A stretch of DNA of 64,000 nt from Saprospiraceae bacterium (GCA_965247965.1 OZ252053.1:1710014-1774013); one strand, 5' to 3'; numbered from the stretch's first letter, positions 8,606 to 63,381 are shown. Numbers and translations: made by a program. Notes: generated from the sequence alone by a model not told the origin.

Positions 8606-9598
8606 ATGTCAAAAAGAATAGCAATTAATGGTTTTGGGCGGATAGGAAGACTTACATTCCGAAACCTTTTGAAAAAAGACGGCATTGAGGTAGTCGCTAT
8701 TAATGATCTCACAGACAATGCCACCTTGGCCCACTTGTTAAAATTCGACAGTGCACATGGCCCATTTGACGGCACTGTGGACAGTACGGACGAAACAGTA
8801 GTCGTCAACGGTCAGACCATTCAGGCTACTGCCGAGCGCAATCCCGCAGCGCTTAATTGGAAGGAGCTCGGTGTCGATTTGGTCTTGGAATGCACTGGTT
8901 TTTTCAGGTCAAAAGATAAGGCAGAACTTCACCAGGAAGCTGGTGCTAAAAAAGTATTGATTTCTGCTCCTGCCAAAGGCGGGGGCATCAAGACCATCGT
9001 TCTGGGTGTAAATGATTCGGATCTATCAGATAGCGATACCATTTTGTCCAATGCAAGTTGCACTACCAATTGCCTGGCTCCCGTGTGCAAAATTGTCGAT
9101 GAATATTTTGGTTTCGTCAAAGGCAGCCTTACCACGACTCATGCTTACACTTCAGACCAACACCTACAAGATGCGCCACATTCTGATCTGAGAAGGGCGA
9201 GAGCCGCTGCATTTAATATTGTTCCGACGAGTACCGGAGCAGCTAATGCTGTTGGCAAGGTTTATCCGAATGTGGCTGGCAAACTATTCGCCATAGCCGT
9301 GAGAGTACCTGTCATCACCGGCTCGATGATAGAACTCAATGCCATCGTCGAGAAAGAGGCAAGCAAAGAGGAGATCAATGCCGCGTTCAAAACAGCCGCG
9401 GATGGCCCGATGAAGGGAATCTTGGAATACTCGACCGACCCGTTGGTCTCGGCAGATATTGTGCGCAATCCTCATTCGAGCATATTCGATTCTTTGCTTA
9501 CCGATACGATGGGTACGATGATCAAAGTGGTAAGTTGGTATGATAACGAGGCGGGGTATTCTGCGCGGTTGGCGGATTTGGCGGTTAGGGTGGCGTAG
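8606..9598 (+). CDS. gap: Glyceraldehyde-3-phosphate dehydrogenase (type I)
   Basis: 330 aa with an NGFGRIGR Rossmann motif and the SCTTNCLAP active site. Confidence 0.95.
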   Translation: MSKRIAINGFGRIGRLTFRNLLKKDGIEVVAINDLTDNATLAHLLKFDSAHGPFDGTVDSTDETVVVNGQTIQATAERNPAALNWKELGVDLVLECTGFFRSKDKAELHQEAGAKKVLISAPAKGGGIKTIVLGVNDSDLSDSDTILSNASCTTNCLAPVCKIVDEYFGFVKGSLTTTHAYTSDQHLQDAPHSDLRRARAAAFNIVPTSTGAANAVGKVYPNVAGKLFAIAVRVPVITGSMIELNAIVEKEASKEEINAAFKTAADGPMKGILEYSTDPLVSADIVRNPHSSIFDSLLTDTMGTMIKVVSWYDNEAGYSARLADLAVRVA

Positions 9599-9607
9599 AG
9601 TGGAAAA

Positions 9608-9684
9608 CAGGGAACAGAAGTCAGAGAACAGAAGTCAGAGAACAGAAGTCAGAGAACAGAAATCAGAAATCAGAAGTCAGAAAG
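9608..9684. repeat. Heptamer tandem repeat (cagaRRN) of 11 units, starting 10 bp after the gap stop codon
   Basis: The units run cagggaa cagaagt cagagaa cagaagt cagagaa cagaagt cagagaa cagaaat cagaaat cagaagt cagaaag. Confidence 0.9.
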
Positions 9685-9937
9685 GCAAATTCGTTTTAAT
9701 TCCCCGACGATGTTGTCAACGATTTTCTACTATCCAATTATTTTAATATTCTCAGTCCGCTGTTTACTGACACTGCTAGGCTAACAATTTAAACACTAAA
9801 ATAATATATGGCGGTTAACTATTTGTTAATTGGCCATTTAATAAGCTTCTATTCTAGAATAGGGCAAATGAGCCACGAATTCGCTTTGTAATTACACTTC
9901 ATATTATTATTTTACGCCATATTTAATTTTAGTTATT

Positions 9938-10348
9938 ATGGCAAAAAATACAAATCCGAGACTACCCGATCTTGATTTTGAAAAACTCAATGTTAAATCT
10001 GATGATTCTACTTCTTTGAAATTTTTAATGCTGGTAGAAGGTGCTTACGGACAGGGTGTGAAGAAAAGCATCAAGAAGTATGGTTATACAGAACAACGGT
10101 ATTACCAATTGTTGAACAAGTTCAAGGAAGATGGTATGGACGCTCTGATCAATCAGAAAAGAGGCCCAAAGAAAAATACTGTTCGTTCTGATAGGGTCAT
10201 CCACCAGATAATCAGACATCGTTTTCTCGATCCGCGAGCCAATAGTGATGTGATCGCCCAAAAGCTTAACCAACAGGGGATCAAAATCAGTAAACGAAGT
10301 GTGGAACGGACTATTCAGGAATATGGTCTTCAAAAAAAAACTCCATAA
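9938..10348 (+). CDS. IS orfA, an HTH-domain transposase accessory protein
   Basis: 136 aa, basic, helix-turn-helix-like. It overlaps orfB across the run aaaaaaaaa at 10326..10334. Confidence 0.6.
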   Translation: MAKNTNPRLPDLDFEKLNVKSDDSTSLKFLMLVEGAYGQGVKKSIKKYGYTEQRYYQLLNKFKEDGMDALINQKRGPKKNTVRSDRVIHQIIRHRFLDPRANSDVIAQKLNQQGIKISKRSVERTIQEYGLQKKTP

Positions 10349-11732
10349 GCTAAATCCCGATAGTCAAAAGCCAATACCTGTTACTGCCCAGCAGACCAAG
10401 AGGGTAAAAAAGAAGATCGTGGTTACCGAACAGAACAATGAACGGTTCATACGCGAAATGTTAGCTCGAAAGGTATCAGGCACTCATTTGGGTCTCTGGT
10501 TATTGATACCGGAATATCTACGACTTGGAGCCTGGGACTTGGTCTGCGGACTTTTCAATAAGCCCGAAGATCACAACCTTTCTGCCCGTATTGGCCTACA
10601 ATTGGTCAATGAAGCAGCAATTTGTCAAAACAGAGTCAGGAAAAGGAATGCTCTGTGCAATCAAGGTTTTGCCCTGGCAAATGGATTGTCCTTTTTGGTT
10701 ACTGACGAAACCATTCATGAGGTACTCGACCGCCATACGATGGCAGAATATGAATCCCTTCAAGTGACATTAAGGCAACTCAGAAATCTGCAAGGACATT
10801 ATGATCCACAAAATATCCTTGCTATTGATCCACACCGCATTCGGTCGTCCACTCAGCGCGTTATGCCAAAGAAGAAAAAAAGACCTTCAGAGCCTGCTCA
10901 CAAAATGCTACAGACTTTCTTCTGTAACGATGCTTTAACGGGACAGCCATTGGCTTTTACCGTTGGATCAAGCGGCAAAACATGCTCAAAGGCCACCTTA
11001 CAGTTGTTAGACCTATTGAAACAATCAGGGGTTGAAAAAGCATTAATAATGGCCGATAAAGAACATTTTACGGTCGATATATTAAACCACATTGTTGATA
11101 ATACCGAAATGGATCTTCTCTTGGCAGTCCCTAATACCAAAAGTGTTGTTCAATGTTTTAATTCATTGGACTATAAGCACCTCTGGGCAGGATATGCCAT
11201 TGGGCAAACTGATTATAAATTGAAAGCATGTCCACATCCTTTTAAACTTATTGTACAACGAACAGGAGAAATACCTCAATATTATTCCTACAAAGCTTTC
11301 TTATCCACTGTGGATAATAACGTAGTCCAATTACTCACTCAAAACTATCCAAAACGTTGGACTATCGAAGAGTTTTTCAATTTTGAAGGAGATATGGGTT
11401 GGAATCGTGCTTCTACCTTTAACCTCAATATCCGGTACGGGAAACAAAGTCTTGCTCTTATTGCACAAGCAGCTACACATCAATTGAAAAACAAACTACC
11501 AAAACCCTATAACCAATGGACTGCTACACACACCGCTACACAAATCCTTACCAATATGGAAGGTGATCTCAGAGTCAAGGACGACACCATCATTGTCACC
11601 TACTATCGGGACTATCTCAACCTTGGTATAGAAAAACATTACCAAAACTTGCCTCGAATCCTGGAACAGGAGGGAATTAATCCCAAAATACCTTGGCTAT
11701 TTGATTTTAAACTCGACTTTCGATTCAAATGA
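10299..11732 (+). CDS. IS orfB, a DDE transposase with an IS4-superfamily-type C-terminal motif (RWTIEEFF). It is probably expressed as an OrfAB fusion by -1 frameshifting
   Basis: 477 aa. The motif KRWTIEEFFNFEG resembles the RWxIExxF signature of IS4/IS5-superfamily transposases. Confidence 0.55.
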   Translation: MWNGLFRNMVFKKKLHKLNPDSQKPIPVTAQQTKRVKKKIVVTEQNNERFIREMLARKVSGTHLGLWLLIPEYLRLGAWDLVCGLFNKPEDHNLSARIGLQLVNEAAICQNRVRKRNALCNQGFALANGLSFLVTDETIHEVLDRHTMAEYESLQVTLRQLRNLQGHYDPQNILAIDPHRIRSSTQRVMPKKKKRPSEPAHKMLQTFFCNDALTGQPLAFTVGSSGKTCSKATLQLLDLLKQSGVEKALIMADKEHFTVDILNHIVDNTEMDLLLAVPNTKSVVQCFNSLDYKHLWAGYAIGQTDYKLKACPHPFKLIVQRTGEIPQYYSYKAFLSTVDNNVVQLLTQNYPKRWTIEEFFNFEGDMGWNRASTFNLNIRYGKQSLALIAQAATHQLKNKLPKPYNQWTATHTATQILTNMEGDLRVKDDTIIVTYYRDYLNLGIEKHYQNLPRILEQEGINPKIPWLFDFKLDFRFK

Positions 11733-11806
11733 CTAAAATAAATTTACCTTCAAAAATCGTTGACGATGTTGTCGGGACAAGCAGTGTAAATTCGTGGACC
11801 TCTAAA

Positions 11807-13015
11807 ATGAACTTTGATTTTAAGGATAAAAAAGTTCTTATCCGGGTGGATTTTAACGTCCCACTCGACGTAAATCTGAATGTCACTGACGATACCAGAA
11901 TAAGAAAGGCGCTACCAACAATTAATCACGTTTTGGATCATGGCGGCAGTGTAATCCTGATGTCTCATTTTGGTAGACCGCTTAAAAAGTTGAATGACGA
12001 TGGCAGTGTAAATTGTAAAAAATTTTCTCTGAAAAATATAACTAATCGCCTCTCTTCACTGCTGGAAAAAGAAGTACAATTTGTATCGGATACGGTTGGT
12101 GAAGAAGTCAAAATGCATACTGCCAATCTAAAACCAGGAGAGGTTCTTCTCCTGGAAAACACGAGATTTTACAATGAAGAAAAGAAGGGTGATAAAGGTT
12201 TTGCAAAACAGCTTTCGGAACTTGCAGATATCTATATCAACGATGCATTCGGAACCGCTCACCGCGCACATGCGTCTACAACTACGGTAGCTCATTATTT
12301 CCAAAAGGAGAATAAAAGTTTCGGGTTTTTGATGCAAGCCGAAATTGAAAATGCCGAGCGCGTTTTGAATTCTCCGGAAAGCCCGTTTATTGCAATATTG
12401 GGCGGAGCTAAAGTATCGGATAAGATACAACTCATCGAAAAGCTGTTGGACTTGTGCGACGACATCATCATCGGAGGAGGTATGAGTTATACTTTTTCAA
12501 AAGCTCTGGGAGGCAGTATAGGCAATTCGCTGTGCGAAGATGACTTCCAGGAATTGGCTCTAAGCGTTTTGGATAAGGCCGTTGCAAAGGGTGTAAATAT
12601 TCATTTACCTAAAGACACAGTAATCGCCGATGACTTCAGTAATGATGCCAATCGAAAAGTAGTCGATGCGGGCAGCATCCCCGATGGTTGGCAGGGGCTG
12701 GACATTGGACATGAGAGTGTAGACTATTTTAAGACTATCGTGTTGAATGCCAGGACTATCATTTGGAATGGTCCGCTTGGCGTATTCGAATTCGACAATT
12801 TTGCTGGTGGGACAAATTCTATTGCGGCAATAGTTGCAGAAGCTACCCAAAATGGAGCCTATTCTCTGATTGGTGGCGGTGATTCCGTTTCGGCAATAAA
12901 TAAGGCTGGCCTGGCCGATAAAGTCAGTTTTGTGTCAACAGGGGGTGGGGCGATGCTGGAATTTTTGGAAGGGAAGGAATTACCGGGGATTAGGGCGATT
13001 CGGGTTGATTCTTAG
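11807..13015 (+). CDS. pgk: Phosphoglycerate kinase
   Basis: The track ORF starts at 11729, but the PGK N-terminus (MNFDFKDKKVLIRVDFNVPLD) begins at the internal ATG at 11807. The upstream extension overlaps the IS end. Confidence 0.9.
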   Translation: MNFDFKDKKVLIRVDFNVPLDVNLNVTDDTRIRKALPTINHVLDHGGSVILMSHFGRPLKKLNDDGSVNCKKFSLKNITNRLSSLLEKEVQFVSDTVGEEVKMHTANLKPGEVLLLENTRFYNEEKKGDKGFAKQLSELADIYINDAFGTAHRAHASTTTVAHYFQKENKSFGFLMQAEIENAERVLNSPESPFIAILGGAKVSDKIQLIEKLLDLCDDIIIGGGMSYTFSKALGGSIGNSLCEDDFQELALSVLDKAVAKGVNIHLPKDTVIADDFSNDANRKVVDAGSIPDGWQGLDIGHESVDYFKTIVLNARTIIWNGPLGVFEFDNFAGGTNSIAAIVAEATQNGAYSLIGGGDSVSAINKAGLADKVSFVSTGGGAMLEFLEGKELPGIRAIRVDS

Positions 13016-13117
13016 TTGATGAATTGGATATCCAGGAGCCGTTGGAAGAACTTCTGTCAATGCTCGATTGATGGATTACTTATTTGATACGAACGTTATT
13101 CTAGCGTATGTACGAAA

Positions 13118-15005
13118 ATCAAAGTTGAGTCCACTCCGATTACCACACATTTTTCAAGCGTACATTTGCCAGCTGCGGCCAAAACCCTGGAATTTTCTTA
13201 AGTGCAATATTGTTGCATAAGCATTCCTGAGGGTTGCGATGATGATATTTGGAAATCCGAGGGTATTTTCGACCAATTTATCGTTAATTCTTCTAAAATT
13301 CGTCCAAAGTACTCGTGACAGGACATAAATTTGACATTTGAATAAACCCCGATATAATATTTTGTTCCTTTTTTTGAGCCGGTGAAAACATTGATGTATG
13401 GTCGATTCCACATTGGCTCTTAGATTGTGGGTGTGCTCATCTAATGTTTCTTGCATCTGTTGAAATAAAAAATAGTTTTCTACTTCATCTTTGGTCATAT
13501 ACCGACCTCGGGTGTCGTGTTTAATGACGTATTTGTTGGTCTTCTCGTTAAACTTTACCGCGCACTGTTCTCCTGTCTTTTTTCGCCATACTTGAAGATT
13601 GTTATTCTCATCTCGTTTCATTGTATAGGCCTGCTTTCCCCCTTTTGTATTAGCTAACTTCCATTCGGGCGTGGTCGTTTCTGACATTGCTTTTCTGTTG
13701 GCCTTGCTGTCGTATCCGCCATCCGTGATGGCCTGTTCTATTTTATTCTTTTCTTGACCTGATTCATCCTTATCTGGATTTAATACATCCTGGATATGGT
13801 CGATAGATTCGATTAAAAACTCGTCTTCTGTAATATTGGCCGGTACTACCTGGGCATCTACGATTAGGTCTATTTCATTTTCTTCTGTACACGTTTCACT
13901 TATGTTGGCATGATAGCCCGATATGGTCTGTTTATTTTCTGCTTTACCTTTAGTACGGTAGGCAGCATCAGGATCATGAATGGACTGCACACTGCCACTC
14001 GATATGTCTCTTGCAGCTTTGGGTCTCGGAGTATTCTCCTGTTTAGTTTGCTGTTCAGATTCATCACAGACCGCGCTGATTTTTGTTTTATCATCAGAGG
14101 CACTCGGAGGTTTTTGCTCATTAGATTCCTCTGATTGTTCTTCATACTGTTCTTCGTAGAGCCGCTTGAGATCTTGGTAGCCTGTCAATCCCGCCGCCTG
14201 GCCATGACTCAAGAGTACCTTTATGATCTTACCCATACCTACTAGCAGTTCCTCTTTTTCTTTTTTGTTTAATGGGTAGACAATATTGGAGGCACTTTGG
14301 CTTTTTAGCTTTTCTAAAAGCTCGCATGATTCTTTATCCAATTGATCTGTAAGCAGTTCTACCATAAGGTCTTTACTGCATACTCGTACAGCTTCGATTA
14401 TCATCTGGACTCGAGTGCAGCGTGCAATATTGGAATTAATCAACTTCGAATCCAATCGTATTTTCTTACCGCTCACCTTGTATTGCTCTATCTGCCCAAT
14501 AGTGATTTGTTTAAATGCCGCCTTCATCAAATCCTCCCCATGGTCTTCATTATACTCTACCATGCTCTGTCTGAACTTATAGTAAGTCGATTCGGTCGGA
14601 ATATCCTCATTTATATTCGAATATCCCATAGCAAGCATGACCCTGGTGTTGAATCGACATTCATCAAAAAGTTGTTCATCAGTCCAACCTTTACCTTCTT
14701 TAAGGATAATCATTCCCATTAAAACTCTAATTGAGCAATTGGGCCGGCCTCCTTGATTATAAAGCACCTCGAACAATCCTTCGTCTATGCGAGATACCAC
14801 TTCTTTAAAAAATATATTATGCCAACCATTTGGATCATCCAGAAGCTCTCGCTTCCGTTCTGATAGCATCCCTCCTATCGATTTGAATAGATCAACTTGT
14901 GAATTTGTACTACGTTTAAACATATCACAAATTAAATATATATGTCATCTTATTGTAATATTTGACATGATTTATGATTTAGTTTTCGGAGTGGACTCAA
15001 AGTTG
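13118..15005 (-). mobile_element. IS1182-family insertion sequence, copy B, complete at ~1.89 kb with ~20 bp imperfect terminal IRs
   Basis: The reverse complement of the right end (caactttgagtccactccga) matches the left end (caaagttgagtccactccga at 13118..13137). Confidence 0.8.
13154..14923 (-). CDS. IS1182-family DDE transposase (589 aa)
   Basis: InsH-like N-terminal domain (GGRPNCSIRVLMGMIILKEGKGWTDEQL) and a C-terminal IS1182/IS5-type motif. Confidence 0.85.
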   Translation of the reverse strand: MFKRSTNSQVDLFKSIGGMLSERKRELLDDPNGWHNIFFKEVVSRIDEGLFEVLYNQGGRPNCSIRVLMGMIILKEGKGWTDEQLFDECRFNTRVMLAMGYSNINEDIPTESTYYKFRQSMVEYNEDHGEDLMKAAFKQITIGQIEQYKVSGKKIRLDSKLINSNIARCTRVQMIIEAVRVCSKDLMVELLTDQLDKESCELLEKLKSQSASNIVYPLNKKEKEELLVGMGKIIKVLLSHGQAAGLTGYQDLKRLYEEQYEEQSEESNEQKPPSASDDKTKISAVCDESEQQTKQENTPRPKAARDISSGSVQSIHDPDAAYRTKGKAENKQTISGYHANISETCTEENEIDLIVDAQVVPANITEDEFLIESIDHIQDVLNPDKDESGQEKNKIEQAITDGGYDSKANRKAMSETTTPEWKLANTKGGKQAYTMKRDENNNLQVWRKKTGEQCAVKFNEKTNKYVIKHDTRGRYMTKDEVENYFLFQQMQETLDEHTHNLRANVESTIHQCFHRLKKRNKILYRGLFKCQIYVLSRVLWTNFRRINDKLVENTLGFPNIIIATLRNAYATILHLRKFQGFGRSWQMYA

Positions 15006-17568: not shown

Positions 17569-17640
17569 ATTTCACTTTTATTTTCCATAAAACACGGGCC
17601 ATTATTGAACTTGATTCTTGTACTTGACACTTGAACTTGA

Positions 17641-18078
17641 TCAGCCTTCCGGAAATCCACTATCCAGCCAGCACTTAAAAAATTCAAGTTCTTCGGCGGT
17701 CAGGTCATCTTTTAGAGATTCTTCGTAGGTGGACATATTGGGAGGCATGCCAATGACTTCATTATCCTTTTGATCTATGACCCGGCTTTTGACCAGGCCA
17801 TTACTCAGGTCTCTGGATAAGTCGCCGTCGTATTTTGTGTAATTTCCAGGGCCGATACCAGCAGCTCCGTCGTGACACCCAGTATATGAGCAGCTTTCAT
17901 TTATTATGGTGCGAATAGTGGCGTTGTAGGTGATGTTATCCTCACATACATCGGGATTGTCGGCTAACTGATCTCTGCTGCACGCGGTTTGAAACAAAAG
18001 AATCGCTGCAAATAAGATTCGCATAATATAAAATCTGCGCATCAATACATCCTTGTATAGTCGTAAAATAATGCGCAA
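17641..18078 (-). CDS. Hypothetical secreted protein or lipoprotein with a CxxxxCH-like motif (CSYTGCH). The true start is probably an internal Met
   Basis: Hydrophobic N-terminus ILFAAILLFQTACS (a lipobox-like Cys). Confidence 0.45.
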   Translation of the reverse strand: MRIILRLYKDVLMRRFYIMRILFAAILLFQTACSRDQLADNPDVCEDNITYNATIRTIINESCSYTGCHDGAAGIGPGNYTKYDGDLSRDLSNGLVKSRVIDQKDNEVIGMPPNMSTYEESLKDDLTAEELEFFKCWLDSGFPEG

Positions 18079-30831: not shown

Positions 30832-31227
30832 AAATATGAAGCAGTTTTAATTCGCGAGGTCTACTCCCTATTACCCTGAATTTATTGGGACGGGTAAGGA
30901 GTTCTGACACTGAGGAAGACGACAGCATTCCGCAGACGGGAGTGATCTGCGTGCAGATACATGGCGGCAAACCGGCTGAGGCTTGGTATAAGGATATTTT
31001 TATCAAGGAGTTGTGACGACGGCTTACACTTCGACTACGCTCAGTGCAGGCGGCCAACGCTGACGACAATTTGTTTGATGTTGTTTCAAATAGTTGCCAG
31101 GATTTTCAACAAACTTTATCGGCTTTTTGAAACATCAGTGTTCCACTACTCCAGTCATTTCGCCACAGACGACATGCATTGCAACACATTTTTTTTGTTC
31201 GATATAGTTTGATTTTGTTCCATATTC

Positions 31228-31267
31228 TCAAACTACTTCAAACTATCTCAAACTATCTCAAACTATT
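31228..31267. repeat. 10-mer tandem repeat (tcaaactaYN) of 4 units, located 19 bp downstream of the flotillin stop
   Basis: ctcaaactac ttcaaactat ctcaaactat ctcaaactat. Confidence 0.85.
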
Positions 31268-31285
31268 GCGCAACTCCAGCCTCGA

Positions 31286-33419: not shown

Positions 33420-33444
33420 GGAAATGTTCGGCGAACTGATTTAC

Positions 33445-33496
33445 TGTTTCATTGTTGTATTGTTTCACTGTTGTATTGCTTTACCGTTGTATTGCG
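33445..33496. promoter_or_regulatory. Three tandem 17-mers (tttcaYYgttgtattgc) in the nfeD-floT / paiB divergent promoter region, a candidate operator array
   Basis: tgtttcattgttgtattg tttcactgttgtattgc tttaccgttgtattgcg. Confidence 0.55.
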
Positions 33497-33664
33497 ATGC
33501 CCTCCGACCAAGTTTGAGCTAGAAAGGTTATATAGCTAAATTGCCTGCTGAGATTTACTAAATCCGAAAGATTTAGCAAATCCAATCGGTCAGAAAAGCA
33601 CGCAGGGCGAGCCAACTTGTGAGGGGATTTGAGTATATAAAAACGCAATAATCTAGCAATCATA

Positions 33665-33699
33665 ACAGTACAACAGTGTAACAATACAACAATGTACAT
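33665..33699. promoter_or_regulatory. Two inverted copies of the same 17-mer overlapping the paiB start codon (33692)
   Basis: The reverse complement of 33665..33699 is atgtacattgttgtattgttacactgttgtactgt. cattgttgtattg is identical to unit 1 of the left array. Confidence 0.55.
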
Positions 33700-34309
33700 C
33701 CCCCACTATTTTAACGATAGCACTCCAGAAGAAGTAAAAGAGTTCATAGACAAACACAGCTTTGGTACTCTTTTCAATCAAACTAAAGGAAAATATTGGG
33801 CTAGCCATATCCCCATGGAATTGGAAACAAATGAAGATGGTAAAGACATTTTGGTCGGTCACATTTCAAAAGGAAATCGGCAGTGGAAGGGATTTAAGGA
33901 AAGAGATGACGTGCTGGCGGTATTTCTGGGGCAGCACACCTATGTTTCATCCACCTGGTACAACCACGAAAACGTGCCGACTTGGAACTATATAGCCGTA
34001 CACGTCTACGGCAAAATAAAGATCATCGAAGAAGAGCGACTTCGCGATTCTCTGAAAAATCTTATGAATAAGTATGAGGCAATGACGCAAACGCACTTAA
34101 AATTAGAAGATCTGTCCGAAAAGATGGTCGATCGAGAGATCAAGGGAATCGTAGGATTTGAAATCTTGATCGACGAAGTACAGGCTGCCTTTAAGCTTTC
34201 GCAGAATCGGGATGAGGAGAGTTATGATAATGTGGTCGAAGAATTGTCAAAATCGGATGAAGAGAATGAAAAAGAGGTGGGGCGGATTATGGCAAAGCGG
34301 AGGGAATGA
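33692..34309 (+). CDS. paiB: PaiB-family FMN-binding transcriptional regulator
   Basis: 205 aa with an MYIPxHF N-terminus and the PaiB family fold pattern. Confidence 0.7.
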   Translation: MYIPHYFNDSTPEEVKEFIDKHSFGTLFNQTKGKYWASHIPMELETNEDGKDILVGHISKGNRQWKGFKERDDVLAVFLGQHTYVSSTWYNHENVPTWNYIAVHVYGKIKIIEEERLRDSLKNLMNKYEAMTQTHLKLEDLSEKMVDREIKGIVGFEILIDEVQAAFKLSQNRDEESYDNVVEELSKSDEENEKEVGRIMAKRRE

Positions 34310-34495
34310 CATTCCTCAGAACAGCGGCGTCCCTAGTGCTTTGTCAGATATGTTTTTAGAAACAATCAAAATGAAAACCTGTACTGAGTACGTCGAAGTA
34401 TGGAAATCAAAATAGTACAAAGCAGGTCGAAGTTTTTGATTGAATTTTTGATTTTGATTAAAAACTTTGTGAATATTCTAAATTTTGGCTTGGCA

Positions 34496-36000
34496 GAGCA
34501 CTAGTATGTGTTTAGCGTGCAATAATAGCTTGCCGATAGGATCTTGTGAGTATTTCCTCGAATGATTTACCTTGTTGAATAAAGGTTTGCATTAACGACA
34601 CGAGTGTTTGCCAAGTGTCAGCACCTTTGTCAGATCTGTTTCCACAGGATATTTTTCGAGATATGACCGCAGGCCTTAGCTGTCTTTCGGCCAAGTTATT
34701 TGTAGCGTCAACCTGATCGTAATCCATGAATGTGAATAGGTGATCTTTCTGTCTTGAAAATCTATTCAAAACCTTTATGGTACTTTCCTGAAATTCGATT
34801 GTTTGATCCTCTACTTGTTTTTTTATTTGTTCCAATTCTGGGATTAGATCGTCTGCTTGATTTTGAAGATGCTTAATAGCAGCTCGATATTGTTTATCTG
34901 TCACCTTATCTTTTGTCTTTTTTATAACCATTGCCGTTTTCAACATACTTTTTATTTGCTCCAACCGCACTTTATCTTTTTCTGAATCTTCTACAAATTG
35001 TTCGGCTGTTGAAATGGCCTTCAGATGATGGGAATAACATTTTTGTTGATCTTGGTTTACATCATCATAGATATTCAGACAATCACTCACCAGTACTCCT
35101 GCATAGTTTTCGCCTAATATGCTTTGTATTACCGCTCTTGCCCTTGATCGAATCACATGATATAAAGTCAGGTTTTTATTCGCAAATACCCACAACCAAT
35201 ACTTTGGATCAGATACGTACCAACTGGTTTCATCGGCATGAATGACATCCGATGTTCGCACCCTCTGCTTTAAATCTTCATAGGGTTCTTTAAGCACTTT
35301 GGCTGCTTTGTGCCCCATATGTACCAAGCCTCCGGGGCTTATTTTTATCCCGAATATCTTTTCCATCACAGCCACTGTTTTTCGCTTTGATAACCCGTAT
35401 TTATAGTTCAATTCCAAAGCTAAACTCCTTGCCATTGAGCCAATGTAGGTACTTGCTGCTCCTTTAGCATTGCTGATCTTGATCGGATGGTCGCTGCTCA
35501 CTACATTTTTACAATGGGTACATGTCCCTTGATATGTAATCAACTTTGTAACCTTTTTGGTGGCCTGGATTTCCTCCACTATTTGTTCTACCTGCTCAAC
35601 TTGTTCAAATTCATCGTGCTGGCATATTGGGCACTTTTCTAAGGGTGCATCCACCGTTTGGTCCACCTTGCCTTCAAATTTTCTAAAATAGCCTTTATGC
35701 CGGGGCTTGTTGCCTGGTCGTTTTTTATCCTTCTTCCTTTTCTTGTCTTCTATCCTGAATGGTGCGGCTTGTCGTTTGGAGGCTCGCTCAAGGGAAACTA
35801 TTTTGTCAAAAGCTAATTTCAACTCTTCTCTGAGTTCAGTAATTGTTTTACCTTGTTTTCGAACAAGTTCAATCAATTCTGATTTATCTAAGGACTCAAG
35901 AATGGATAAGTCCATCGTGCAGTTTCCTAATTTGAACACATATTACGAAAAATAATATGTATATCCAAATTACGCTAAACACATACGAGCACTAGTGCTC
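34496..36000 (-). mobile_element. IS66-family (single-ORF ISBst12-like) element. It is either 34506..35986 with a 10 bp TSD gagcactagt, or its IRs include that 10-mer
   Basis: IRs gagcactagtatgtgtttagcgtg (34496..34519) and tacgctaaacacatacgagcactagtgctc (35971..36000). Confidence 0.75.
34512..35915 (-). CDS. IS66-family transposase (TnpC-like)
   Basis: Zinc-finger Cys pairs (CPICQH, CTHCKN), ADETSW, and the C-terminal NNLAERQLRPAVISRK...G motif typical of IS66. Confidence 0.85.
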   Translation of the reverse strand: MDLSILESLDKSELIELVRKQGKTITELREELKLAFDKIVSLERASKRQAAPFRIEDKKRKKDKKRPGNKPRHKGYFRKFEGKVDQTVDAPLEKCPICQHDEFEQVEQVEQIVEEIQATKKVTKLITYQGTCTHCKNVVSSDHPIKISNAKGAASTYIGSMARSLALELNYKYGLSKRKTVAVMEKIFGIKISPGGLVHMGHKAAKVLKEPYEDLKQRVRTSDVIHADETSWYVSDPKYWLWVFANKNLTLYHVIRSRARAVIQSILGENYAGVLVSDCLNIYDDVNQDQQKCYSHHLKAISTAEQFVEDSEKDKVRLEQIKSMLKTAMVIKKTKDKVTDKQYRAAIKHLQNQADDLIPELEQIKKQVEDQTIEFQESTIKVLNRFSRQKDHLFTFMDYDQVDATNNLAERQLRPAVISRKISCGNRSDKGADTWQTLVSLMQTFIQQGKSFEEILTRSYRQAIIAR

Positions 36001-36156
36001 TGTAAAGTAAATTTCTACAGCTTATGGCGGCATCTTTTGAGCCAGCTCTTTGTTGCAAAGCCTCGCCGTAGCTTTGGCTATGGCTGCGTTTTGCGCCGCG
36101 ATCTGACTCAAAATCTGCTCCCCATAATTCAGAAGAACTTACTTTACAAAGCACTA
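35987..36156. repeat. MITE-like palindromic element (~180 bp) with ~25 bp TIRs, gagcactagtgctctgtaaagtaaa and tttactttacaaagcactagtgcctc. It has been hit by the IS66 element in its left TIR and by the IS630 element in its right TIR
   Basis: The reverse complement of 36131..36156 plus 37425..37433 is gaggcactagtgctttgtaaagtaa, which matches 35987..36011 at 24 of 25 positions. No ORF is present. Confidence 0.6.
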
Positions 36157-36289
36157 GTGTTCAGTCAAGCGCATAAATCTGGGTAAAAAGAATAAAGTAA
36201 CTTCGAATGTTGTTTTGCATAAAGATTAGAGTGACCACCTGATCAAAAAGAGAATATAGAGCCTTGATTAATGAACAAAAAAAAGAATC

Positions 36290-36760
36290 ATGGCAAAATT
36301 TTACAAAGTAACCTTAACCGAAGAAGAGCGTAGTGAATTAGAGCGAATAATAAGCATACCCAATAGTAAGTCAATTAGGACCAAGCGGAGTTATATATTA
36401 TTGGCCTCAGATGAGAATGGAGATAAGCATTGGACAGATAAAAAGATTCAAATTGCCTATGGAATGACGATAAATGGAATAGAGCGAATGCGAAAAAGAT
36501 TTGTGGAACACGGATTTGAAGCAGCGCTATATGGAAAGAAAAGAGAATATGTAAAAGAAAAGATATTTGACGGTCGGGTAGAAAGCCATTTACTATCCTT
36601 AAGATGTGAAGAAGTTCCTGATGGTCATTCAGGGTGGAGTTTACGATTATTGGCTGATAAGATGGTAGAATTGGAATATGTAGAAAGCATCAGTCATGAA
36701 TCTATACGGCAGATACTAAAAAAAACAAAATTAAACCCTGGCGAGTCAAAGGTTGGATAA
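36290..36760 (+). CDS. IS630-family transposase, N-terminal HTH part (orfA)
   Basis: 156 aa with HTH domains. It abuts orfB with a taATG overlap. Confidence 0.75.
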   Translation: MAKFYKVTLTEEERSELERIISIPNSKSIRTKRSYILLASDENGDKHWTDKKIQIAYGMTINGIERMRKRFVEHGFEAALYGKKREYVKEKIFDGRVESHLLSLRCEEVPDGHSGWSLRLLADKMVELEYVESISHESIRQILKKTKLNPGESKVG

Positions 36761-37416
36761 TGCCAAAGAAAGGAGCAGATTTTGTTCATAAAATGGAAGC
36801 GGTATTAGATGTATATGAACGACCATATGACCCGACTCATCCAGTAATCTGTTTAGATGAGTCCCCTAAACAGATCATAAGTGAAACAAAGAAAAGCTAT
36901 ATGGATTCAAAGGGTATATTACATCAAGACTATGAGTATAAAAGAGAAGGAGTAAAAAGTATGTACATGATCGTAGAACCCTTAGGAGAATACAGAGAAG
37001 TACATATTGAGGATAATCACAATAGTCAGACTTACGCAAAAATCATCATGAACTTAGTAGAAAAAACATATAGCGCTGCTAACAAAATCACATTGGTAGA
37101 GGACAATTTAAGTGCACATAAATTAAGTACCTTATATGAAATTATGCCTGCCCCCAGAGCCCGAAACATAGTGAAAAAGATAGAAGTTGTTCGCACACCG
37201 GCACATGCTTCCTGGCTCAATATTGCAGAATGTGAATTGAGCGTATTAACACGGTGTGGTTTGAAAAGTAGAATGTCAGATGAAGAACAACTCAAAAAAC
37301 AAACCAAAGCCTGGTATGGGTACAGAAACAAAAACCAAAAAGGAGTAGATTGGCAATTTACAACGAGTGATGCGCGCATTAAACTAAAAAATCTTTACCC
37401 AGACTATATAATTTGA
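36760..37416 (+). CDS. IS630-family transposase, DDE catalytic part (orfB)
   Basis: VICLDESPKQ...ASWLNIAECELSVL, a typical IS630 DDE/E region. Confidence 0.8.
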   Translation: MPKKGADFVHKMEAVLDVYERPYDPTHPVICLDESPKQIISETKKSYMDSKGILHQDYEYKREGVKSMYMIVEPLGEYREVHIEDNHNSQTYAKIIMNLVEKTYSAANKITLVEDNLSAHKLSTLYEIMPAPRARNIVKKIEVVRTPAHASWLNIAECELSVLTRCGLKSRMSDEEQLKKQTKAWYGYRNKNQKGVDWQFTTSDARIKLKNLYPDYII

Positions 37417-37449
37417 CTGAACACTAGTGCCTCAAGCAGAAAGTTTGGT

Positions 37450-37656
37450 ACTCCTAATTCGAAGCCTTACAGCCCTGAAAGGGCGTTAAGCAACGACATA
37501 GGGCAACGCCCTATGATTTACTAATCGCAGAACCAGCCCTGAAAGGGCGGAAGCAAGCTACTCATTGACGATCAATGATAGGTTTTATATTTAACATACT
37601 GAAGCTTTCGCCCTTACAGGGCTTGACCTTTGTCGATTCCAACAAAGGGCGCTCCC
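37450..37656. repeat. Cluster of GC-rich palindromic REP-like units (agccctgaaagggcg twice, cgcccttacagggct, caaagggcgc)
   Basis: agccctgaaagggcg at ~37472 and ~37534, with inverted partners nearby. Confidence 0.6.
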
Positions 37657-38979
37657 CCATACTACTGGACATGAGCTATAAATTGTGGTTCAAAGAATAG
37701 CCAAGAGGGTTTGGGGATAGAACGAATGGAATGAGAAAGAAAGCATATGAAATTTCTAAGGTTGTTGAATTTGATTTCTAAAAAGGATAGTCCTTTTTTA
37801 AATTTGGAAACGACTAAGTTGATCGATCCGTTTTTATATTTCTTCCAATCACTCTTCTTTTTGTGCTTGAGTTGGGTTAGACCCTGTTCAATACATAAGG
37901 CATAGATAAATACTACAATACCCATTGTCAATTCTATTTTTCCAGAGTCTTTAAAATTAAGAGCTTCTAAATTGAAACCATTTGATTTTAAGTGTTTGAA
38001 GCAAGTTTCAATAGTCCAACGAATAGGGTAAAGCTTTACTATTTTTCTTTTGTCTTTCAATGTAGATATGAAATAAAACAGAGGTTCGTTGGCTGAACTT
38101 TTGGGGTTTTTAAAAATCACAAAAGAAAATTTTTTTCCAAGGATTTCAATTTGTTTAGACACTCCACAGATTTGATACCGTTTTTTCAATGCTTCACGTT
38201 CAATACCAATGTATCGAAGATGTTGGTGTTTATAAAATGTCTTATCCTTTCCCCTTTGGTTGTCCACATACCCTTTATAAATTCCCTTTTTTAACCTAAT
38301 TACAAACTCTAACCCCTTGTTTACCAGATATTTAAACCATCTTTCTCCGATGTACTCCCGATCTGCTAGTAGTATCAAACCTTTCAGATTATATAATTTA
38401 CAGGCTTTGTCTATCACCTTTCGTCTTTCATTAAAATTACTCATACCCTTCTTGTCTAAGTCTTCCCACCATATTGGAATACTTACTCCATTGACCACTA
38501 CACTCAATGTTAATAAGTGAATATTCTTGTTGCCATTCTCCCAGCTCGTACCATCTAGTGCCAAATATTTGATGTTCTTCGCTTTGAGTCTCAACAAATA
38601 AAAACTAAAACATAATATAGCTTCAATCAATGCCTGCTTGTCAGCATCATCCATATTGAAAAAACGGATCAACCTCTTATAATTCGAATCAGGTTTGGTG
38701 TTTTGTTGGTTTTCGAGTATTCCAGGGAGCTTATCCTTTACAATGTTCAAATTCGTCGTCCTGGCTGATAATATACCTTGGGCTGTTGTGAGAAAATTTT
38801 TTATTACATGTTCTTCAAAACCTGAGAAAAATGGTTTTATTTCGCTTACGAGTGGAATTGTCATTGTTGTTAATTGTTTGTTTTACAAACAATAATGATA
38901 TATTCCACTTTATTATAATATATAACCTACTTTATTTCAAGACATTGTATTATTTTAACCCCAATGTCCAGTAGTATGG
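37657..38979 (-). mobile_element. IS4-family element with 16 bp IRs (ccatactactggacat / atgtccagtagtatgg), flanked by a 10 bp TSD with one mismatch (ggcgctcccc / ggcgctgccc). It is inserted in a REP-like hairpin
   Basis: IRs at 37657..37672 and 38964..38979. The reconstructed target caaagggcgctgccctttg is a hairpin. Confidence 0.8.
37662..38864 (-). CDS. IS4-family DDE transposase
   Basis: LALDGTSWE, ADREY and RWTIETCFKHLKS, which are the IS4 DDE_Tnp_1 signatures. Confidence 0.85.
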   Translation of the reverse strand: MTIPLVSEIKPFFSGFEEHVIKNFLTTAQGILSARTTNLNIVKDKLPGILENQQNTKPDSNYKRLIRFFNMDDADKQALIEAILCFSFYLLRLKAKNIKYLALDGTSWENGNKNIHLLTLSVVVNGVSIPIWWEDLDKKGMSNFNERRKVIDKACKLYNLKGLILLADREYIGERWFKYLVNKGLEFVIRLKKGIYKGYVDNQRGKDKTFYKHQHLRYIGIEREALKKRYQICGVSKQIEILGKKFSFVIFKNPKSSANEPLFYFISTLKDKRKIVKLYPIRWTIETCFKHLKSNGFNLEALNFKDSGKIELTMGIVVFIYALCIEQGLTQLKHKKKSDWKKYKNGSINLVVSKFKKGLSFLEIKFNNLRNFICFLSHSIRSIPKPSWLFFEPQFIAHVQ

Positions 38980-39060
38980 CGCTGCCCTTTGCTTTTGCTG
39001 TAAGCCCTTAAGGCTTAATCTGTTAGCACAACTAAACCGCTTATTAAGTCTTTGGAGTAT

Positions 39061-39846
39061 CTAATTTGGTGCACTAGTTAGGACATCTTTTCTTTTCCTA
39101 TCCAGCACTCCCGCAATCCCAACAATAGCAAGCAACAAAGTAAGCACGATCAATCCCCATTGACCTAGGGTAGGTACAGCCGGGTTACGCTGAATCGTCA
39201 CACTGAAGACTATATCGAGAGTTGCGTCATCGACACCATTACCACTAAAAACATTAGTACCGGCCAGGATATCACCGTTATTAAAGCGCATACTAAACCT
39301 GGCAGGGAAACCCTCTTCTGCGAGGGAAATGGCGTATTGAGTACCGTTAGTAACAGGAAAAGGCGTGGTCAATGGAATGTTTATAACCCCTGCTCCTGTA
39401 ATGGCAACCGTTTGCGTATAGCCGCCGCCATTTGTATTCATTCCGGTAGAAATAGTTAAAACCGTATTGCCGGCAATTGTTACACCACCTATTTCAAAAC
39501 AAACGGCCGTAATATTTCCATCACCACATGCGAGAAAAGTTTGTCCGACTTCTCTATTTGCCGCACCAAGTGCGGGCGCTGTAGCGTCGGAGGTTGGCTG
39601 GTCGATCATGCAATCCTGGGAGATCAGCCTTGAGGGAAGAAAAACAAAACAAAAAATGAGGATGGGCGCAACAAAAAAACCTAGAGCTTTAGTCCGTAGT
39701 CCGTAGTCCGTAGTCAAAATGTCTGGTCTTTCAAAATGGTTCACAATGGTGACTTTAAAACTTCTTGAGGAGGAGGAGGTTTTCACGATGTGGTATTTTA
39801 TATTTTCATGGAATAGTCGTGTACGGTTTTCTTGTCTGGGGCACAA
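39061..39846 (-). CDS. IPTL-CTERM sorting-domain surface protein. The 5' end is unclear: there is no in-frame start before the hydrophobic signal-like segment, so it is possibly disrupted or phase-variable
   Basis: C-terminal VPTLGQWGLIVLTLLLAIVGIAG followed by a basic tail matches the IPTL-CTERM signal. A Gly/Thr-rich beta-rich body precedes it. Confidence 0.6.
   Translation of the reverse strand: MCPRQENRTRLFHENIKYHIVKTSSSSRSFKVTIVNHFERPDILTTDYGLRTKALGFFVAPILIFCFVFLPSRLISQDCMIDQPTSDATAPALGAANREVGQTFLACGDGNITAVCFEIGGVTIAGNTVLTISTGMNTNGGGYTQTVAITGAGVINIPLTTPFPVTNGTQYAISLAEEGFPARFSMRFNNGDILAGTNVFSGNGVDDATLDIVFSVTIQRNPAVPTLGQWGLIVLTLLLAIVGIAGVLDRKRKDVLTSAPN
39691..39716. repeat. Heptamer tandem repeat (tagtccg) of 3.7 units in the 5' region of the IPTL-CTERM gene
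   Basis: tagtccgtagtccgtagtccgtagtc. Confidence 0.85.
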
Positions 39847-40046
39847 TGTAAAAATTAATGGGACAATGGTGAGGAATACATGTGAAAATTTGATTTATTA
39901 TTTTTTGTAATATGACCAATGGCCGACCTTCCTGAAAGTTTTCGAGATTGGGTCGATTTCAACTGAATCGCGTTGTAAGACCTGACAGATCATACCAAAG
40001 GCAGATAAATTTTCGAAACCTGTCAGGTCCAGGCAAAACTTAAATC

Positions 40047-40457
40047 ATGGAATTAGAAATCACAACAGATAAATCTAAAATCGACGTCCCGTTCGTACAC
40101 CAATATCTCAGCAAAACATCCTATTGGGCAAAGGGCAGAACTTATAGGGCTGTCAAAGAGTCAATCGAAAACTCATTGTGTTTTTCTGCGCTTTTGAACG
40201 AGGTTCAGATCGGCTTCGCACGAGTAGTTACGGATAAAGGGACCTTCGCCTACATCGCTGACCTATTCATTGATGAAAAATATCAAAGGAATGGATATGG
40301 TAGAAGGTTGATGGAAACTATTATGGCTCATCCTGACTTACAAAGTGTAGAGCGATGGATGCTGCTGACCAAGGATGCGCATAAGTTGTACAAAAAATAT
40401 GGATTTAGAAAAACGAAGAAGGCGAAGTGGGTAATGGAGTATTTGCCAGGAATATGA
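40047..40457 (+). CDS. GNAT-family N-acetyltransferase
   Basis: 136 aa with the acetyl-CoA-binding motif (QRNGYGRRLME). Confidence 0.8.
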   Translation: MELEITTDKSKIDVPFVHQYLSKTSYWAKGRTYRAVKESIENSLCFSALLNEVQIGFARVVTDKGTFAYIADLFIDEKYQRNGYGRRLMETIMAHPDLQSVERWMLLTKDAHKLYKKYGFRKTKKAKWVMEYLPGI

Positions 40458-40639
40458 AGATCTGACATACGAAGGATGAAAAGAAAACCTGGTGCCGAAC
40501 AGAATTGCTAAACCGTGTTGGCTCTTTGTTTTGAAAGGACTTTCCACGATTCGAGCTTTTCAATGATTCCGCAAAGGTCTGCACTTATCTTTTTCTTTTC
40601 TTCTTTACTGAGAGAATGAAGTTGTTTAATAACACATTA

Positions 40640-41620
40640 CGGATTATTTTAATATAAAAAGTTTGTAGCTTTAGAAACGCTGAGGTGTAGAACCAAAGAA
40701 TAACTAAAGACTACAAACAATGGTTAAAGCTGAAATTAATGAATTTTTTGTACAACACATGCCTAAAATATCAAATGGAAAGAAACTAAAAGTACCAATG
40801 TGGAAAATAGTGAAGGCCATATTGTATAAGCTCAAAACAGGTGTGCAATGGAGGCAATTGCCTGTTCGACATTTCTTTGGATTTATCAGATATAGCTGGC
40901 AATCAGTGTTTTATCACTTCAACAAGTGGTCAAAAACAGGAATTTGGAAAAGATGTTATGAGCAATTATTGCTAAATAAACGGAAGCATTTAAACCTTTG
41001 TTCTGTAAATTTTGATGGATCACATACCCCGGTAAAGCGAGGAGGACAAGAGGTAGGTTATCAAGGTAGAAAGAAAGCTCAAACCACGAATCTATTGATA
41101 CTGACCGATGATCAGGGTGTGCCAATAGGTTGGTCAGAACCGATAAGTGGCCAGCATCATGACAGTTTTGAACTGGTAAAAACTGCTAATAAAATTTTTG
41201 ATCAAATGGAGGCAATTGACCTTTCATGTGATGGTCTTTTCCTGAATGCCGATGCAGGGTTTGATGTTGCCAAATTCAAGGAACTATGCTTTGAAAAGGA
41301 CATCATATTCAACATCGATAAAAACAAGAGAAGGGGAAAATCAGATGATGAAGACACTCCATATGTCTTTGATAATCAACTATATAAGAGAAGATTTGTG
41401 GTGGAACAACTTAATGCTTGGGTAGACGGATTCAAGACTTTAGTAATAAGATATGAAACCACAACCATCAATTGGATGTCTTTCCACTATCTGGCCTTCG
41501 CAATTATTTTCCTGAGAAAATTTCAAACCGTTAACATTTAGTTATTAAACAACTTCAATGTTTGATCTCGCGGATCAAATTTCCAATGTCAGTAATACCA
41601 TGCTCAATTGCCTTAATATT
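40640..41620 (+). mobile_element. IS5-family element. Its ends were not resolved
   Basis: Single IS5-type transposase ORF, but the termini could not be identified by eye. Confidence 0.45.
40720..41541 (+). CDS. IS5-family (IS427/ISL2-group) transposase with a DUF4096-like N-terminus
   Basis: KLKTGVQWRQLP N-terminal motif, a DDE core, and a C-terminal ...RRFVVEQLNAWVDGFKTLVIRYE. Confidence 0.85.
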   Translation: MVKAEINEFFVQHMPKISNGKKLKVPMWKIVKAILYKLKTGVQWRQLPVRHFFGFIRYSWQSVFYHFNKWSKTGIWKRCYEQLLLNKRKHLNLCSVNFDGSHTPVKRGGQEVGYQGRKKAQTTNLLILTDDQGVPIGWSEPISGQHHDSFELVKTANKIFDQMEAIDLSCDGLFLNADAGFDVAKFKELCFEKDIIFNIDKNKRRGKSDDEDTPYVFDNQLYKRRFVVEQLNAWVDGFKTLVIRYETTTINWMSFHYLAFAIIFLRKFQTVNI

Positions 41621-41756
41621 CGCGAGAGCTTTTTTTAGGAGTTTCTTTCGCCTGCTCATTCCAACATTAAAACTATGAAAAATCTAATCAAGATACAGGT
41701 ACAGACACGTTTGGGTGTGAGACAAATCGCACAAAAAAATTACAATTCAAGTTGAG

Positions 41757-41790
41757 ACGAACGGCGTTCCTTCGAAGGAACGCCGTTCGT
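41757..41790. other. Perfect 34 bp palindrome (acgaacggcgttccttc | gaaggaacgccgttcgt) about 75 bp upstream of the Hsp70 gene
   Basis: The first 17 nt are the exact reverse complement of the last 17 nt. Confidence 0.9.
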
Positions 41791-41866
41791 TAGTGCAATC
41801 TGTCCTGCACCCACACGTTTTGCCTAACAATCCCCATCTTTGTCACACCAATTGTCCTAAAAATTC

Positions 41867-55810: not shown

Positions 55811-55880
55811 GTTATGCCTTTGGCATAAACGTTCGACAATGATGTGAATTTTGGTAGCCACACCCGCCTGCCGTCGGGCA

Positions 55881-55949
55881 GGGATTACACGAATTACACA
55901 GATTGTTTGCCTACGGCAATAATCCGTGTGCATCTGTGAAATCTGTGGC
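55881..55949. repeat. ~70 bp interspersed repeat (ggattacacgaattacacagatt...ccgtgtgcatctgtgaaatctgtggc) with internal inverted symmetry. A homologous copy lies at 61733..61812
   Basis: Aligns by eye with 61735..61810. gattacacagatt and aatctgtgaaatc are reverse-complementary arms. Confidence 0.75.
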
Positions 55950-56024
55950 CTATCCCTTTGCCGGAGGCAAAGAAAGAAAGTTCAGGGACTATTATTGGTC
56001 TCTTGCTGAATAAGATAGGATGTA

Positions 56025-61667: not shown

Positions 61668-61732
61668 GAAACCACGGAGAAATTATTAGTAAAAACAGGA
61701 AACGCGAAGTAAAAGTGATAAAGGTTTTGACC

Positions 61733-61812
61733 ACGGATTACACAGATTACACAGATTATTGCGGTAGGCAATTAATCCGCTCCATCCGTGAAATCTGTGA
61801 AATCTGTAGCTA
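61733..61812. repeat. Second copy of the ~70 to 80 bp repeat (gattacaca x2 ... ccgtgaaatctgtgaaatctgtagc), in the mraY-murD spacer
   Basis: Homologous to 55881..55949. It contains the 9-mer tandem gattacaca gattacaca. Confidence 0.75.
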
Positions 61813-61896
61813 CAAAAACCACGTGCCAGCAGGTGGAGTTTGGCCTGTGCAAACAATTGGTGTGGTTCTACAACTATCTAAAACATACAAGGGTAG

Positions 61897-63162: not shown

Positions 63163-63196
63163 GTTTTTGAAGCGCTCGCGGGAATAAAACAAAAAA

Positions 63197-63224
63197 GTTG
63201 CCGGTTGCCGGTTGCGAGTTGTTG
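63197..63224. repeat. Heptamer tandem array (gttgcNg x4) downstream of murD
   Basis: gttgccg gttgccg gttgcga gttgttg. Confidence 0.85.
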
Positions 63225-63318
63225 GAGTCTCAATCTAAACCAAAATATAAAAAATATGAATTCTTGTAATGTGATACTGCTTGAAAATGCGACAGTTATT
63301 CTTCGGACGCGTGAACCC

Positions 63319-63381
63319 GTAACTGGCAACTCGCAACTGGTAACTGGTAACTGGTAACTGGTAACTGGTAACTGGTAACTA
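63319..63381. repeat. Heptamer tandem array (gYaactN x9) upstream of ftsW. It is an approximate inverted partner of the array at 63197..63224
   Basis: gtaactg gcaactc gcaactg gtaactg x5 gtaacta. Confidence 0.85.

Follow-up and report, generated by a model that had tools for sequence, protein, structure and literature searches.

The array of eleven heptamers at positions 9608-9684 of the window, the whole 64,000-nucleotide stretch of Saprospiraceae DNA that was analysed, is a real and polymorphic tandem repeat that has no predicted structure and is missing from close relatives. Since its copy number varied between close strains and no RNA structure was predicted for it, the array was interpreted as a slippage-prone microsatellite and not as an element linked to the stop codon. 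With a probability of roughly 0.7, it is a hypermutable heptanucleotide microsatellite, also termed a long simple sequence repeat (LSSR), for which neutrality or near-neutrality is most likely. We infer that the array changes by slippage and that it is of little or no consequence for fitness. Replication slippage would lengthen and shorten it by whole 7-nt units and by 14-nt double units, and the array would persist because the spacer tolerates additional unstructured, stop-free, purine-rich DNA.

The array and its setting between gap and pgk

The host was determined to be an uncultured member of the Saprospiraceae (Bacteroidota), as the best homologues of its GAPDH, MraY and flotillin came from Saprospiraceae metagenome-assembled genomes. 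The gap gene (8606..9598, + strand) was identified by its translation as encoding type I glyceraldehyde-3-phosphate dehydrogenase; the homologues carry PF00044 and PF02800, and the best named matches belong to Saprospiraceae. The gap ORF ends with TAG at 9596-9598, therefore the first base of the array is the tenth base after the stop. The number of units, their length and this position are exactly as given in the preliminary description of the locus.

The array (9608..9684, + strand) was characterised by TRF, shuffles, folding and allele comparison with two related contigs, L095 and L096. It consists of eleven tandem units of 7 nt in the order CAGGGAA, CAGAAGT, CAGAGAA, CAGAAGT, CAGAGAA, CAGAAGT, CAGAGAA, CAGAAAT, CAGAAAT, CAGAAGT, CAGAAAG. 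The consensus of the unit is CAGRRRN, also written CAGARRN, and a higher-order 14-mer (CAGAAGT CAGAGAA) is present in three perfect copies. The array was called by TRF both as a 7-mer and as the 14-mer CAGAGAACAGAAGT x5.3 with a score of 120, compared with a top score of 76 for periods of at least 5 in 100 dinucleotide shuffles of the window. Two features by which LSSRs are defined were thereby found: the head-to-tail repetition of a 1-11 nt unit (11 x 7 nt) and a length beyond that expected from the composition of the 64-kb window.

The sense strand of the array is 78% purine, and all three + frames are stop-free through 9608-9684. The predicted fold of the array RNA had a minimum free energy of -2.5 kcal/mol (z +0.79 against shuffles) and a wholly unpaired centroid, and the entire left gap-pgk spacer folded no better than its shuffles (z +1.40). 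An inverted partner array was detected neither in the window nor in the intact spacer of L095; the latter result also led to the rejection of the idea that such a partner had existed and was since lost. No copy of the unit was found in the rest of the window or in the 108 fetched loci. The Rfam search gave no match at gathering thresholds for the window and none at E<=1 for the gap-pgk spacer, and no tRNA or tmRNA was found in the window.

The proposal that arrays of this kind are terminator-like did not hold for the array studied. A terminator or a protective structure of the gap mRNA 3' end would agree with the start of the array 10 nt past the stop and with the other arrays of the window that do sit in hairpins. 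However, the array is solitary, unstructured and purine-rich and therefore not terminator-like, and the G+C-rich stem-loop and U tract of an intrinsic terminator are absent from it. No terminator-like site was found in 9599-9720 by a consensus scan, the sigma-70 promoter model of which does not cover the Bacteroidota type. The sole candidate structure is a small hairpin, CCCCGAC...GTCGGGG (also CCCCGAY...GTCGGGG), which lies 3' of the array and outside it, and two more distant relatives, with GAPDH identities of 88% and 86%, are array-free and carry ordinary hairpin-plus-T-run sequences there instead. A terminator function is, consequently, highly improbable.

Downstream of the array, the remainder of the original spacer (9685..9717, + strand) contains the left half of the small hairpin and the left copy of a target-site duplication. 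It is followed by an insertion sequence (IS; 9718..11761, + strand) that splits the gap-pgk spacer and was recognised by its Pfam matches, its terminal inverted repeats (AACGATTTT / AAAATCGTT) and the 12-bp duplication GACGATGTTGTC at 9706-9717 and 11762-11773. The ORFs of the IS encode an HTH protein (9938..10348) and a DDE_Tnp_1 transposase (10299..11732). The final 33 nt of the original spacer (11774..11806, + strand) are the same as in L095 and adjoin pgk (11807..13015, + strand), the phosphoglycerate kinase gene (PF00162) originally located 3' of the array and 92% identical to the sister PGK gene. The gap-pgk interval of the window thus spans 2.2 kb, array and IS included, and the IS begins 33 nt downstream of the array; in the intact, IS-free allele the distance from the array end to the pgk start is 66 nt. 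The IS landed in the loop of the CCCCGAC...GTCGGGG hairpin. As only about 45 nt of native sequence are left upstream of pgk, the gene in the window probably has its own promoter there.

The proximity of the IS, together with the dispersed hairpin element to which other arrays of the window belong, raised the question whether the array is a part of a mobile element, either of the IS itself, of a MITE or of a REP/REPIN-type repeat. This explanation was found to be very improbable. The IS is missing from L095 and L096, which have the array, and from the sister contigs. The inverted ends of the IS and its 12-bp duplication exclude the array. The array itself lacks an inverted partner, a flanking duplication and any other copy in the window and the 108 loci. 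Neither a MITE or IS terminus, which would be enclosed by terminal inverted repeats and a target-site duplication, nor a REP, BIME or REPIN, an imperfect palindrome with many dispersed copies, describes it in the DNA covered.

The gap-pgk spacer in close relatives

An intact spacer was present in two short contigs, L095 (JGI 3300032278) and L096 (Logan SRR9003212). Their array consists of five heptamers (CAGGGAA, CAGAAAT, CAGAGAA, CAGAAGT, CAGAAAG). Without the IS and one copy of the duplication, the window spacer is 152 nt long compared with 110 nt in L095, and the difference of 42 nt corresponds to six units or three 14-mers. Outside the array, the spacers of the window and L095 differ by 1 SNP in 75 nt, and pgk shows 100% identity over its first 85 nt. 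A change of six array units was thus accompanied by a single substitution in about 160 nt of flanking DNA; the gap genes differ by 4.4%. Polymorphism in whole units between close strains (11 vs 5), a further defining feature of LSSRs, was thereby found. In the two alleles compared, the array appears to mutate faster than its own flanks, and the three perfect 14-mers of the window indicate a probable recent expansion in a 14-nt register. A metagenome scan with the left junction of the array gave seven matches, one of which was true (the L095 contig); the others were chance matches in unrelated DNA, and no new allele was recovered.

The sister lineage was represented by ENA metagenome contigs (L081-L088, L090-L094, L106-L108) that cover most of the window. 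Sister genes share 93-97% nucleotide identity with those of the window (94.6% for gap). The sister gap-pgk spacer is 131 nt long and has no array (L081-L085, L106-L108); homology between the window and the sister ends exactly at the gap stop and restarts at the pgk ATG at 11807. The gap of L095 is nearer to the sister lineage (96.8%) than to the window (95.6%). At 15 of the first 85 pgk positions, the sister differs from both the window and L095. A gap gene of the sister type joined to a spacer and pgk start of the window type implies that a recombination breakpoint lies close to the 3' end of gap, at about its stop, and that the ancestry around the spacer is putatively mosaic.

The array-bearing spacer is common to two lineages with 4.4% divergence in gap; the array is therefore not ephemeral. 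It may have a weak function. According to the main rival explanation, the array is an intercistronic or 3'-UTR RNA element, an unstructured purine-rich platform for an RNA-binding protein or the ribosome, the length of which tunes the stability of gap mRNA or the translation of pgk by degrees, like a rheostat. The sense-strand position between two glycolysis genes read in the same direction, the absence of stops in all sense frames and the retention in two lineages would agree with such a role. There is also a precedent in the (ATCTTTC)n repeat of H. influenzae hmw (PMC12721329), and for the TAACTGA repeats, binding of post-transcriptional regulators has been proposed (PMC4679880). On the other hand, the array is absent from the sister and from all remoter relatives that share the gene order, it stops 66 nt short of the pgk start in the intact allele, and neither a candidate binding protein nor a known motif was found for a unit that is unique to the locus. 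Moreover, the 2-kb IS now lies between the array and pgk in the window, therefore any cis effect on pgk is dispensable. A regulatory RNA element was considered unlikely on these grounds.

The length difference between the 11- and 5-unit alleles is a multiple of 21 nt, which has a chance expectation of 1 in 3 and could hint at a frame constraint. A coding array would either extend the C-terminus of GAPDH by read-through of the TAG or belong to a small ORF of 68 aa (9540..9746). The three sense frames are open, the small ORF spans the array and the allele difference is a multiple of 3. However, this ORF begins inside gap in another frame and is unsupported, the sister has no equivalent, GAPDH homologues end at the same residue, and a heptamer period is expected of non-coding repeats. 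That the array is translated was regarded as extremely improbable.

Other arrays of the window and of related genomes

Fourteen arrays with a TRF score of at least 40 and ten with a score of at least 50 were detected in the window, compared with shuffle means of 1.6 and 0.26, respectively. Twelve of the 14 are located in non-coding DNA, which makes up 17% of the window, and a 15-nt unit was found in both arrays that lie within coding sequence. As in LSSRs, units with a length not divisible by 3 were thus confined to non-coding DNA. The arrays were far commoner than chance predicts, and their location outside ORFs agrees with the preliminary description.

The arrays that it cited near flotillin, mraY, murD and rsmH were likewise all located close to the positions given there. 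The assertion that arrays follow stop codons immediately is loose for three of the five. The flotillin array (10-mer x4.1, 31226-31266) lies 20 nt past the stop, the murD array (7-mer x3.7, 63196-63221) 34 nt, the mraY array (9-mer x3, 61732-61758) 66 nt, and the rsmH array, which has just 2 units (55883-55904), 71 nt. For the co-directional cited arrays, the distance to the next start was about equal to the distance to the stop.

Nor do the arrays make up one recurring pattern. The presence of several short arrays stands, but the set is heterogeneous: the array at gap is solitary, and each of the other cited arrays has an inverted partner in the same spacer. The two arms of such a pair together fold into strong hairpins, with z values against shuffles from -3.8 to -6.0. 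The flotillin array pairs with an arm at 31197-31219 (hairpin 31197..31266; z -3.83 for the folded 31190-31275). In the murD-ftsW spacer (63196..63380, + strand; z -5.76 for the folded 63185-63390), the inverted heptamer arms GTTGCCG x3.7 (63196-63221) and GTAACTG x8.9 (63319-63380) are separated by about 100 nt. Inverted 8/16-mer arrays enclose a core of about 160 nt at 33445..33696 (z -6.01 for the folded 33436-33700); this pair (33445-33499 / 33661-33696) is placed between the starts of two divergent genes, and no stop codon is close to it. Its right arm overlaps the ATG at 33692 of an FMN_bind_2 gene, and the 256-nt spacer (33436-33691) is foldback-like with a structured core, the sister having an unrelated spacer of 108 nt. 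Inverted 6/12-mer arrays (CAATNT / ATTGNNATTGAC) occupy 24595..24672 in the spacer of thioredoxin-reductase-like and DoxX-like genes (z -5.51 for 24590-24675), and a similar array, ATTGAAATTGAC, follows the sister ftsZ. A 13-mer x3.2 at 17601..17641 abuts the stop of a minus-strand ORF (17641..18078) and is present, strongly diverged, in the sister.

The rsmH-ftsL array (55875..55955, + strand; z -4.48) and the mraY-murD array (61725..61815, + strand; z -4.98) turned out to be two copies of one dispersed CACAGATT hairpin element. The preliminary description had named membership in a larger dispersed repeat as an outcome contrary to its proposal; such membership was found for these two arrays only. 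The element spans about 80-110 nt and is built of [GATTACACR]n, an apical stem TTGCC-NNN-GGCAA and TAATCCG...ATCTGTGAAATCTGTG; the left arm has from 1 to 4 units, depending on the copy and strain. The rsmH-ftsL copy has two left-arm units and the apical sequence TTGCC-TAC-GGCAA. A third copy was located in the sister ftsA-ftsZ spacer (L086 19225-19335), so that the element occupies three or more dcw-cluster spacers in this lineage, and a hairpin related to it, CACAGAT / ATCTGTG, was located in a different genus of the Saprospiraceae (L005 14905-14980). The elements at 55875-55955 and 61725-61815 resemble REP, BIME and REPIN sequences. The rsmH-ftsL spacer (55811-56024) also contains four small TGCC-N3/4-GGCA hairpins (at 55815, 55869, 55908 and 55959). 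TGCC-N3-GGCA sites numbered 5 window-wide compared with 0.65 expected; the mini-hairpin was rejected as a link among the spacers, being essentially restricted to that of rsmH-ftsL.

Differences in whole units between close strains were found at five sites, in line with the suggestion that the arrays are slippage hotspots. In addition to the array at gap, the flotillin array has 4 units in the window and 6 in the sister, the rsmH-ftsL array 2 in the window and 1 in the sisters, the left arm of mraY-murD 2, 2, 2 and 4 across strains (2 in the window, 4 in L088), and the sister ftsA-ftsZ array 3 or 2 depending on the strain. Expansion was often one-sided (4 vs 2 units in L088, 9 vs 4 in murD-ftsW), therefore perfect pairing of the arms is not strictly maintained. 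The sister murD-ftsW spacer has other heptamers (GTTGGCA / TGCCAAC) with an inverted repeat of only 10 bp. It folds no better than shuffles (z -0.56), and the idea that its structure is kept while the sequence diverges was rejected. Sister spacers corresponding to 33436-33691 and 24604-24680 could not be aligned with the window, so spacer turnover is much faster than gene turnover.

The view that the arrays form a functional class placed consistently 3' of genes was contradicted by a survey of their placement, in which TRF was run on the window and 81 Bacteroidota loci (n=82) centred on the dcw cluster. The ORFs were picked greedily by length with the first ATG as the start, and the start positions are therefore approximate in the following counts: 47 of the 94 arrays in co-directional spacers were nearer to the stop and 47 nearer to the start, and within 10 nt of a boundary 26 were at the stop and 26 at the start. 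The density of arrays was 1.13 per kb in co-directional, 0.74 in divergent and 0.41 in convergent spacers. An element of 3' ends would be expected to be richest in convergent spacers, which were the poorest; in these loci the arrays therefore show no link to 3' ends. Arrays that grow within short spacers inevitably come to lie near both the stop and the start. In L089, a more distant relative with 76% MraY identity, the dcw spacers are just 25-92 nt long and array-free.

The density of arrays was very uneven among the Bacteroidota loci. Several genomes of Saprospiraceae, Saprospirales and Chitinophagales have 2-5 non-coding arrays per kb, which occupy up to 31% of spacer bases, and the units in this lineage differ from locus to locus. 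The heptamer array at gap is one sign of a lineage trait by which Saprospiraceae spacers gather short arrays of 6-16-nt units. The majority are inverted pairs forming long hairpins, and the array at gap represents the solitary, hairpin-free kind.

Spacers that consist almost wholly of near-perfect hairpins with stems of 25-40 bp and mirrored arms of tandem 7-9-mers were observed in other Saprospiraceae genomes: L007 (4385-4565, 5975-6095, 9685-9790), L026 (3078-3172, 4460-4535, 20665-20800), L047 (4220-4380) and L009 (21130-21210). They often fill the interval between the stop codon of one gene and the start of the following one, and variant units are matched in the opposite arm; at L007 4385-4475, AATGATG repeats stand opposite CATCATT repeats. 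In L047 (1-605), a gene for a 23S-rRNA-intervening-sequence protein (PF05635, four-helix bundle) lies between heptamer arrays in inverted orientation, with ATGATGA x12.6 at one flank and CATTCAT x4.6 at the opposite flank, an arrangement that looks like a cassette.

Mobile DNA was also observed elsewhere in the window, with IS-bearing stretches at about 1-1550, 13100-14990, 28592-30906 and 37658-38978. A DUF772/DDE_Tnp_1 element is present in two copies that are identical over a stretch of 32 nt (1463-1494 and 14902-14933), and the sister contig L092 has a DDE_Tnp_1 element at another site. A 3-keto-disaccharide hydrolase gene, intact in the sister, is broken in the window by a Transposase_29 element. 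About 9 kb of the window (33930-43185) are largely missing from the sister contigs.

In a wider hypothesis, the spacers of Saprospiraceae core operons (dcw, glycolysis) would be systematically colonised by hypermutable arrays, mostly mirrored-arm hairpins, that act as evolvable post-transcriptional rheostats, for example through RNase III sites, mRNA stability or translational coupling, and the array at gap would be a single-stranded version tuning the gap/pgk ratio. This hypothesis is quite unlikely to be correct. Read as a microsatellite, the array at gap is one more heptanucleotide repeat, in a phylum with few described, and it could serve as a VNTR-type strain marker for this uncultured member of the Saprospiraceae. 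The hairpin-forming inverted array pairs are a more interesting by-product of the analysis than the array itself. The wider pattern may matter more, with fast-evolving inverted-array hairpins filling Saprospiraceae spacers even in the essential dcw cluster. It could show how slippage and hairpin formation remodel intercistronic regions in bacteria without Shine-Dalgarno-based initiation. No paper joining Saprospiraceae, tandem repeats and intergenic DNA was found in a literature search.

Comparison with known heptamer repeats

Cyanobacterial STRR repeats comprise a few defined units with many dispersed copies in the intergenic DNA of filamentous large-genome bacteria; tandem heptamers of this type with the units CCCCAGT, TTGGTCA and CAACAGT were reportedly described from heterocystous cyanobacteria by Mazel et al. 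in 1990. Both they and the array at gap are intergenic tandem heptamers. However, the unit and the host of the latter are different and the units in its lineage vary by locus, and membership in the STRR family was rejected.

The GGGNATC heptamers of Xanthomonas and Nostoc favour gaps between co-directional ORFs and positions no more than 50 bp from a stop (Rehm et al. 2015, PMC4692102). They are G-rich, form G-quadruplexes, prefer four units and belong to one family genome-wide (PMC4692102). In contrast, the array at gap has no G-tracts and its unit is specific to the locus.

In H. influenzae, expression is inverse to the length of the phase-variable (ATCTTTC)n heptamer repeat in the hmw 5'-UTR (Rapun-Araiz et al. 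2025, PMC12721329). The repeat forms a 5'-UTR hairpin that is processed by RNase III and sets the expression of the adhesin gene (PMC12721329). Its unit number is slippage-variable, and its arm pairs into a long hairpin like those of the other arrays of the window (PMC12721329). The array at gap differs in its position between housekeeping genes and its lack of a hairpin partner, whereas the hmw repeat has a proven effect on expression. A contingency-locus repeat of the hmw type was rejected, the flanking genes being gap and pgk and not a surface or virulence gene.

Direct repeats of TAACTGA and related heptamers were described from Beggiatoaceae, Cyanobacteria and five Bacteroidetes (PMC4679880). 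In the Bacteroidetes the arrays are intergenic, and the corresponding spacers of close relatives are shorter and repeat-free (MacGregor 2015, PMC4679880). The array at gap is similar in being intergenic and strain-specific with repeat-free relatives, and some TAACTGA repeats also abut stops or starts. However, these repeats are almost all direct, with a single inverted case reported for the Beggiatoaceae genome BOGUAY, which was studied in depth (PMC4679880), whereas most companion arrays of the window are inverted pairs. The array at gap was not assigned to the TAACTGA family, its unit being CAGARRN and its position 66 nt from the pgk ATG, not within a few nt of a start. The (GTAACTG) x8.9 arm at 63319-63380 can be read as (TAACTGG)n, which is one base off TAACTGA.

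The closest correspondence was found with LSSRs. As relayed in PMC4679880, no other class of 5-11 nt repeats is as common in prokaryotes as heptanucleotide LSSRs, the origin of which is ascribed to slippage of the polymerase (Mrazek 2007). In the same account, LSSRs (Mrazek, Guo and Shah 2007) share with the array at gap the head-to-tail heptamers, a length beyond chance, the non-coding location and whole-unit polymorphism. The survey, to the extent that PMC4679880 reports it, named no Bacteroidota among the richest genomes, whereas the host here belongs to the Saprospiraceae; unlike the repeats in that account, most companion arrays of the window are paired in inverted orientation. Every defining LSSR feature that was tested is present in the array at gap.
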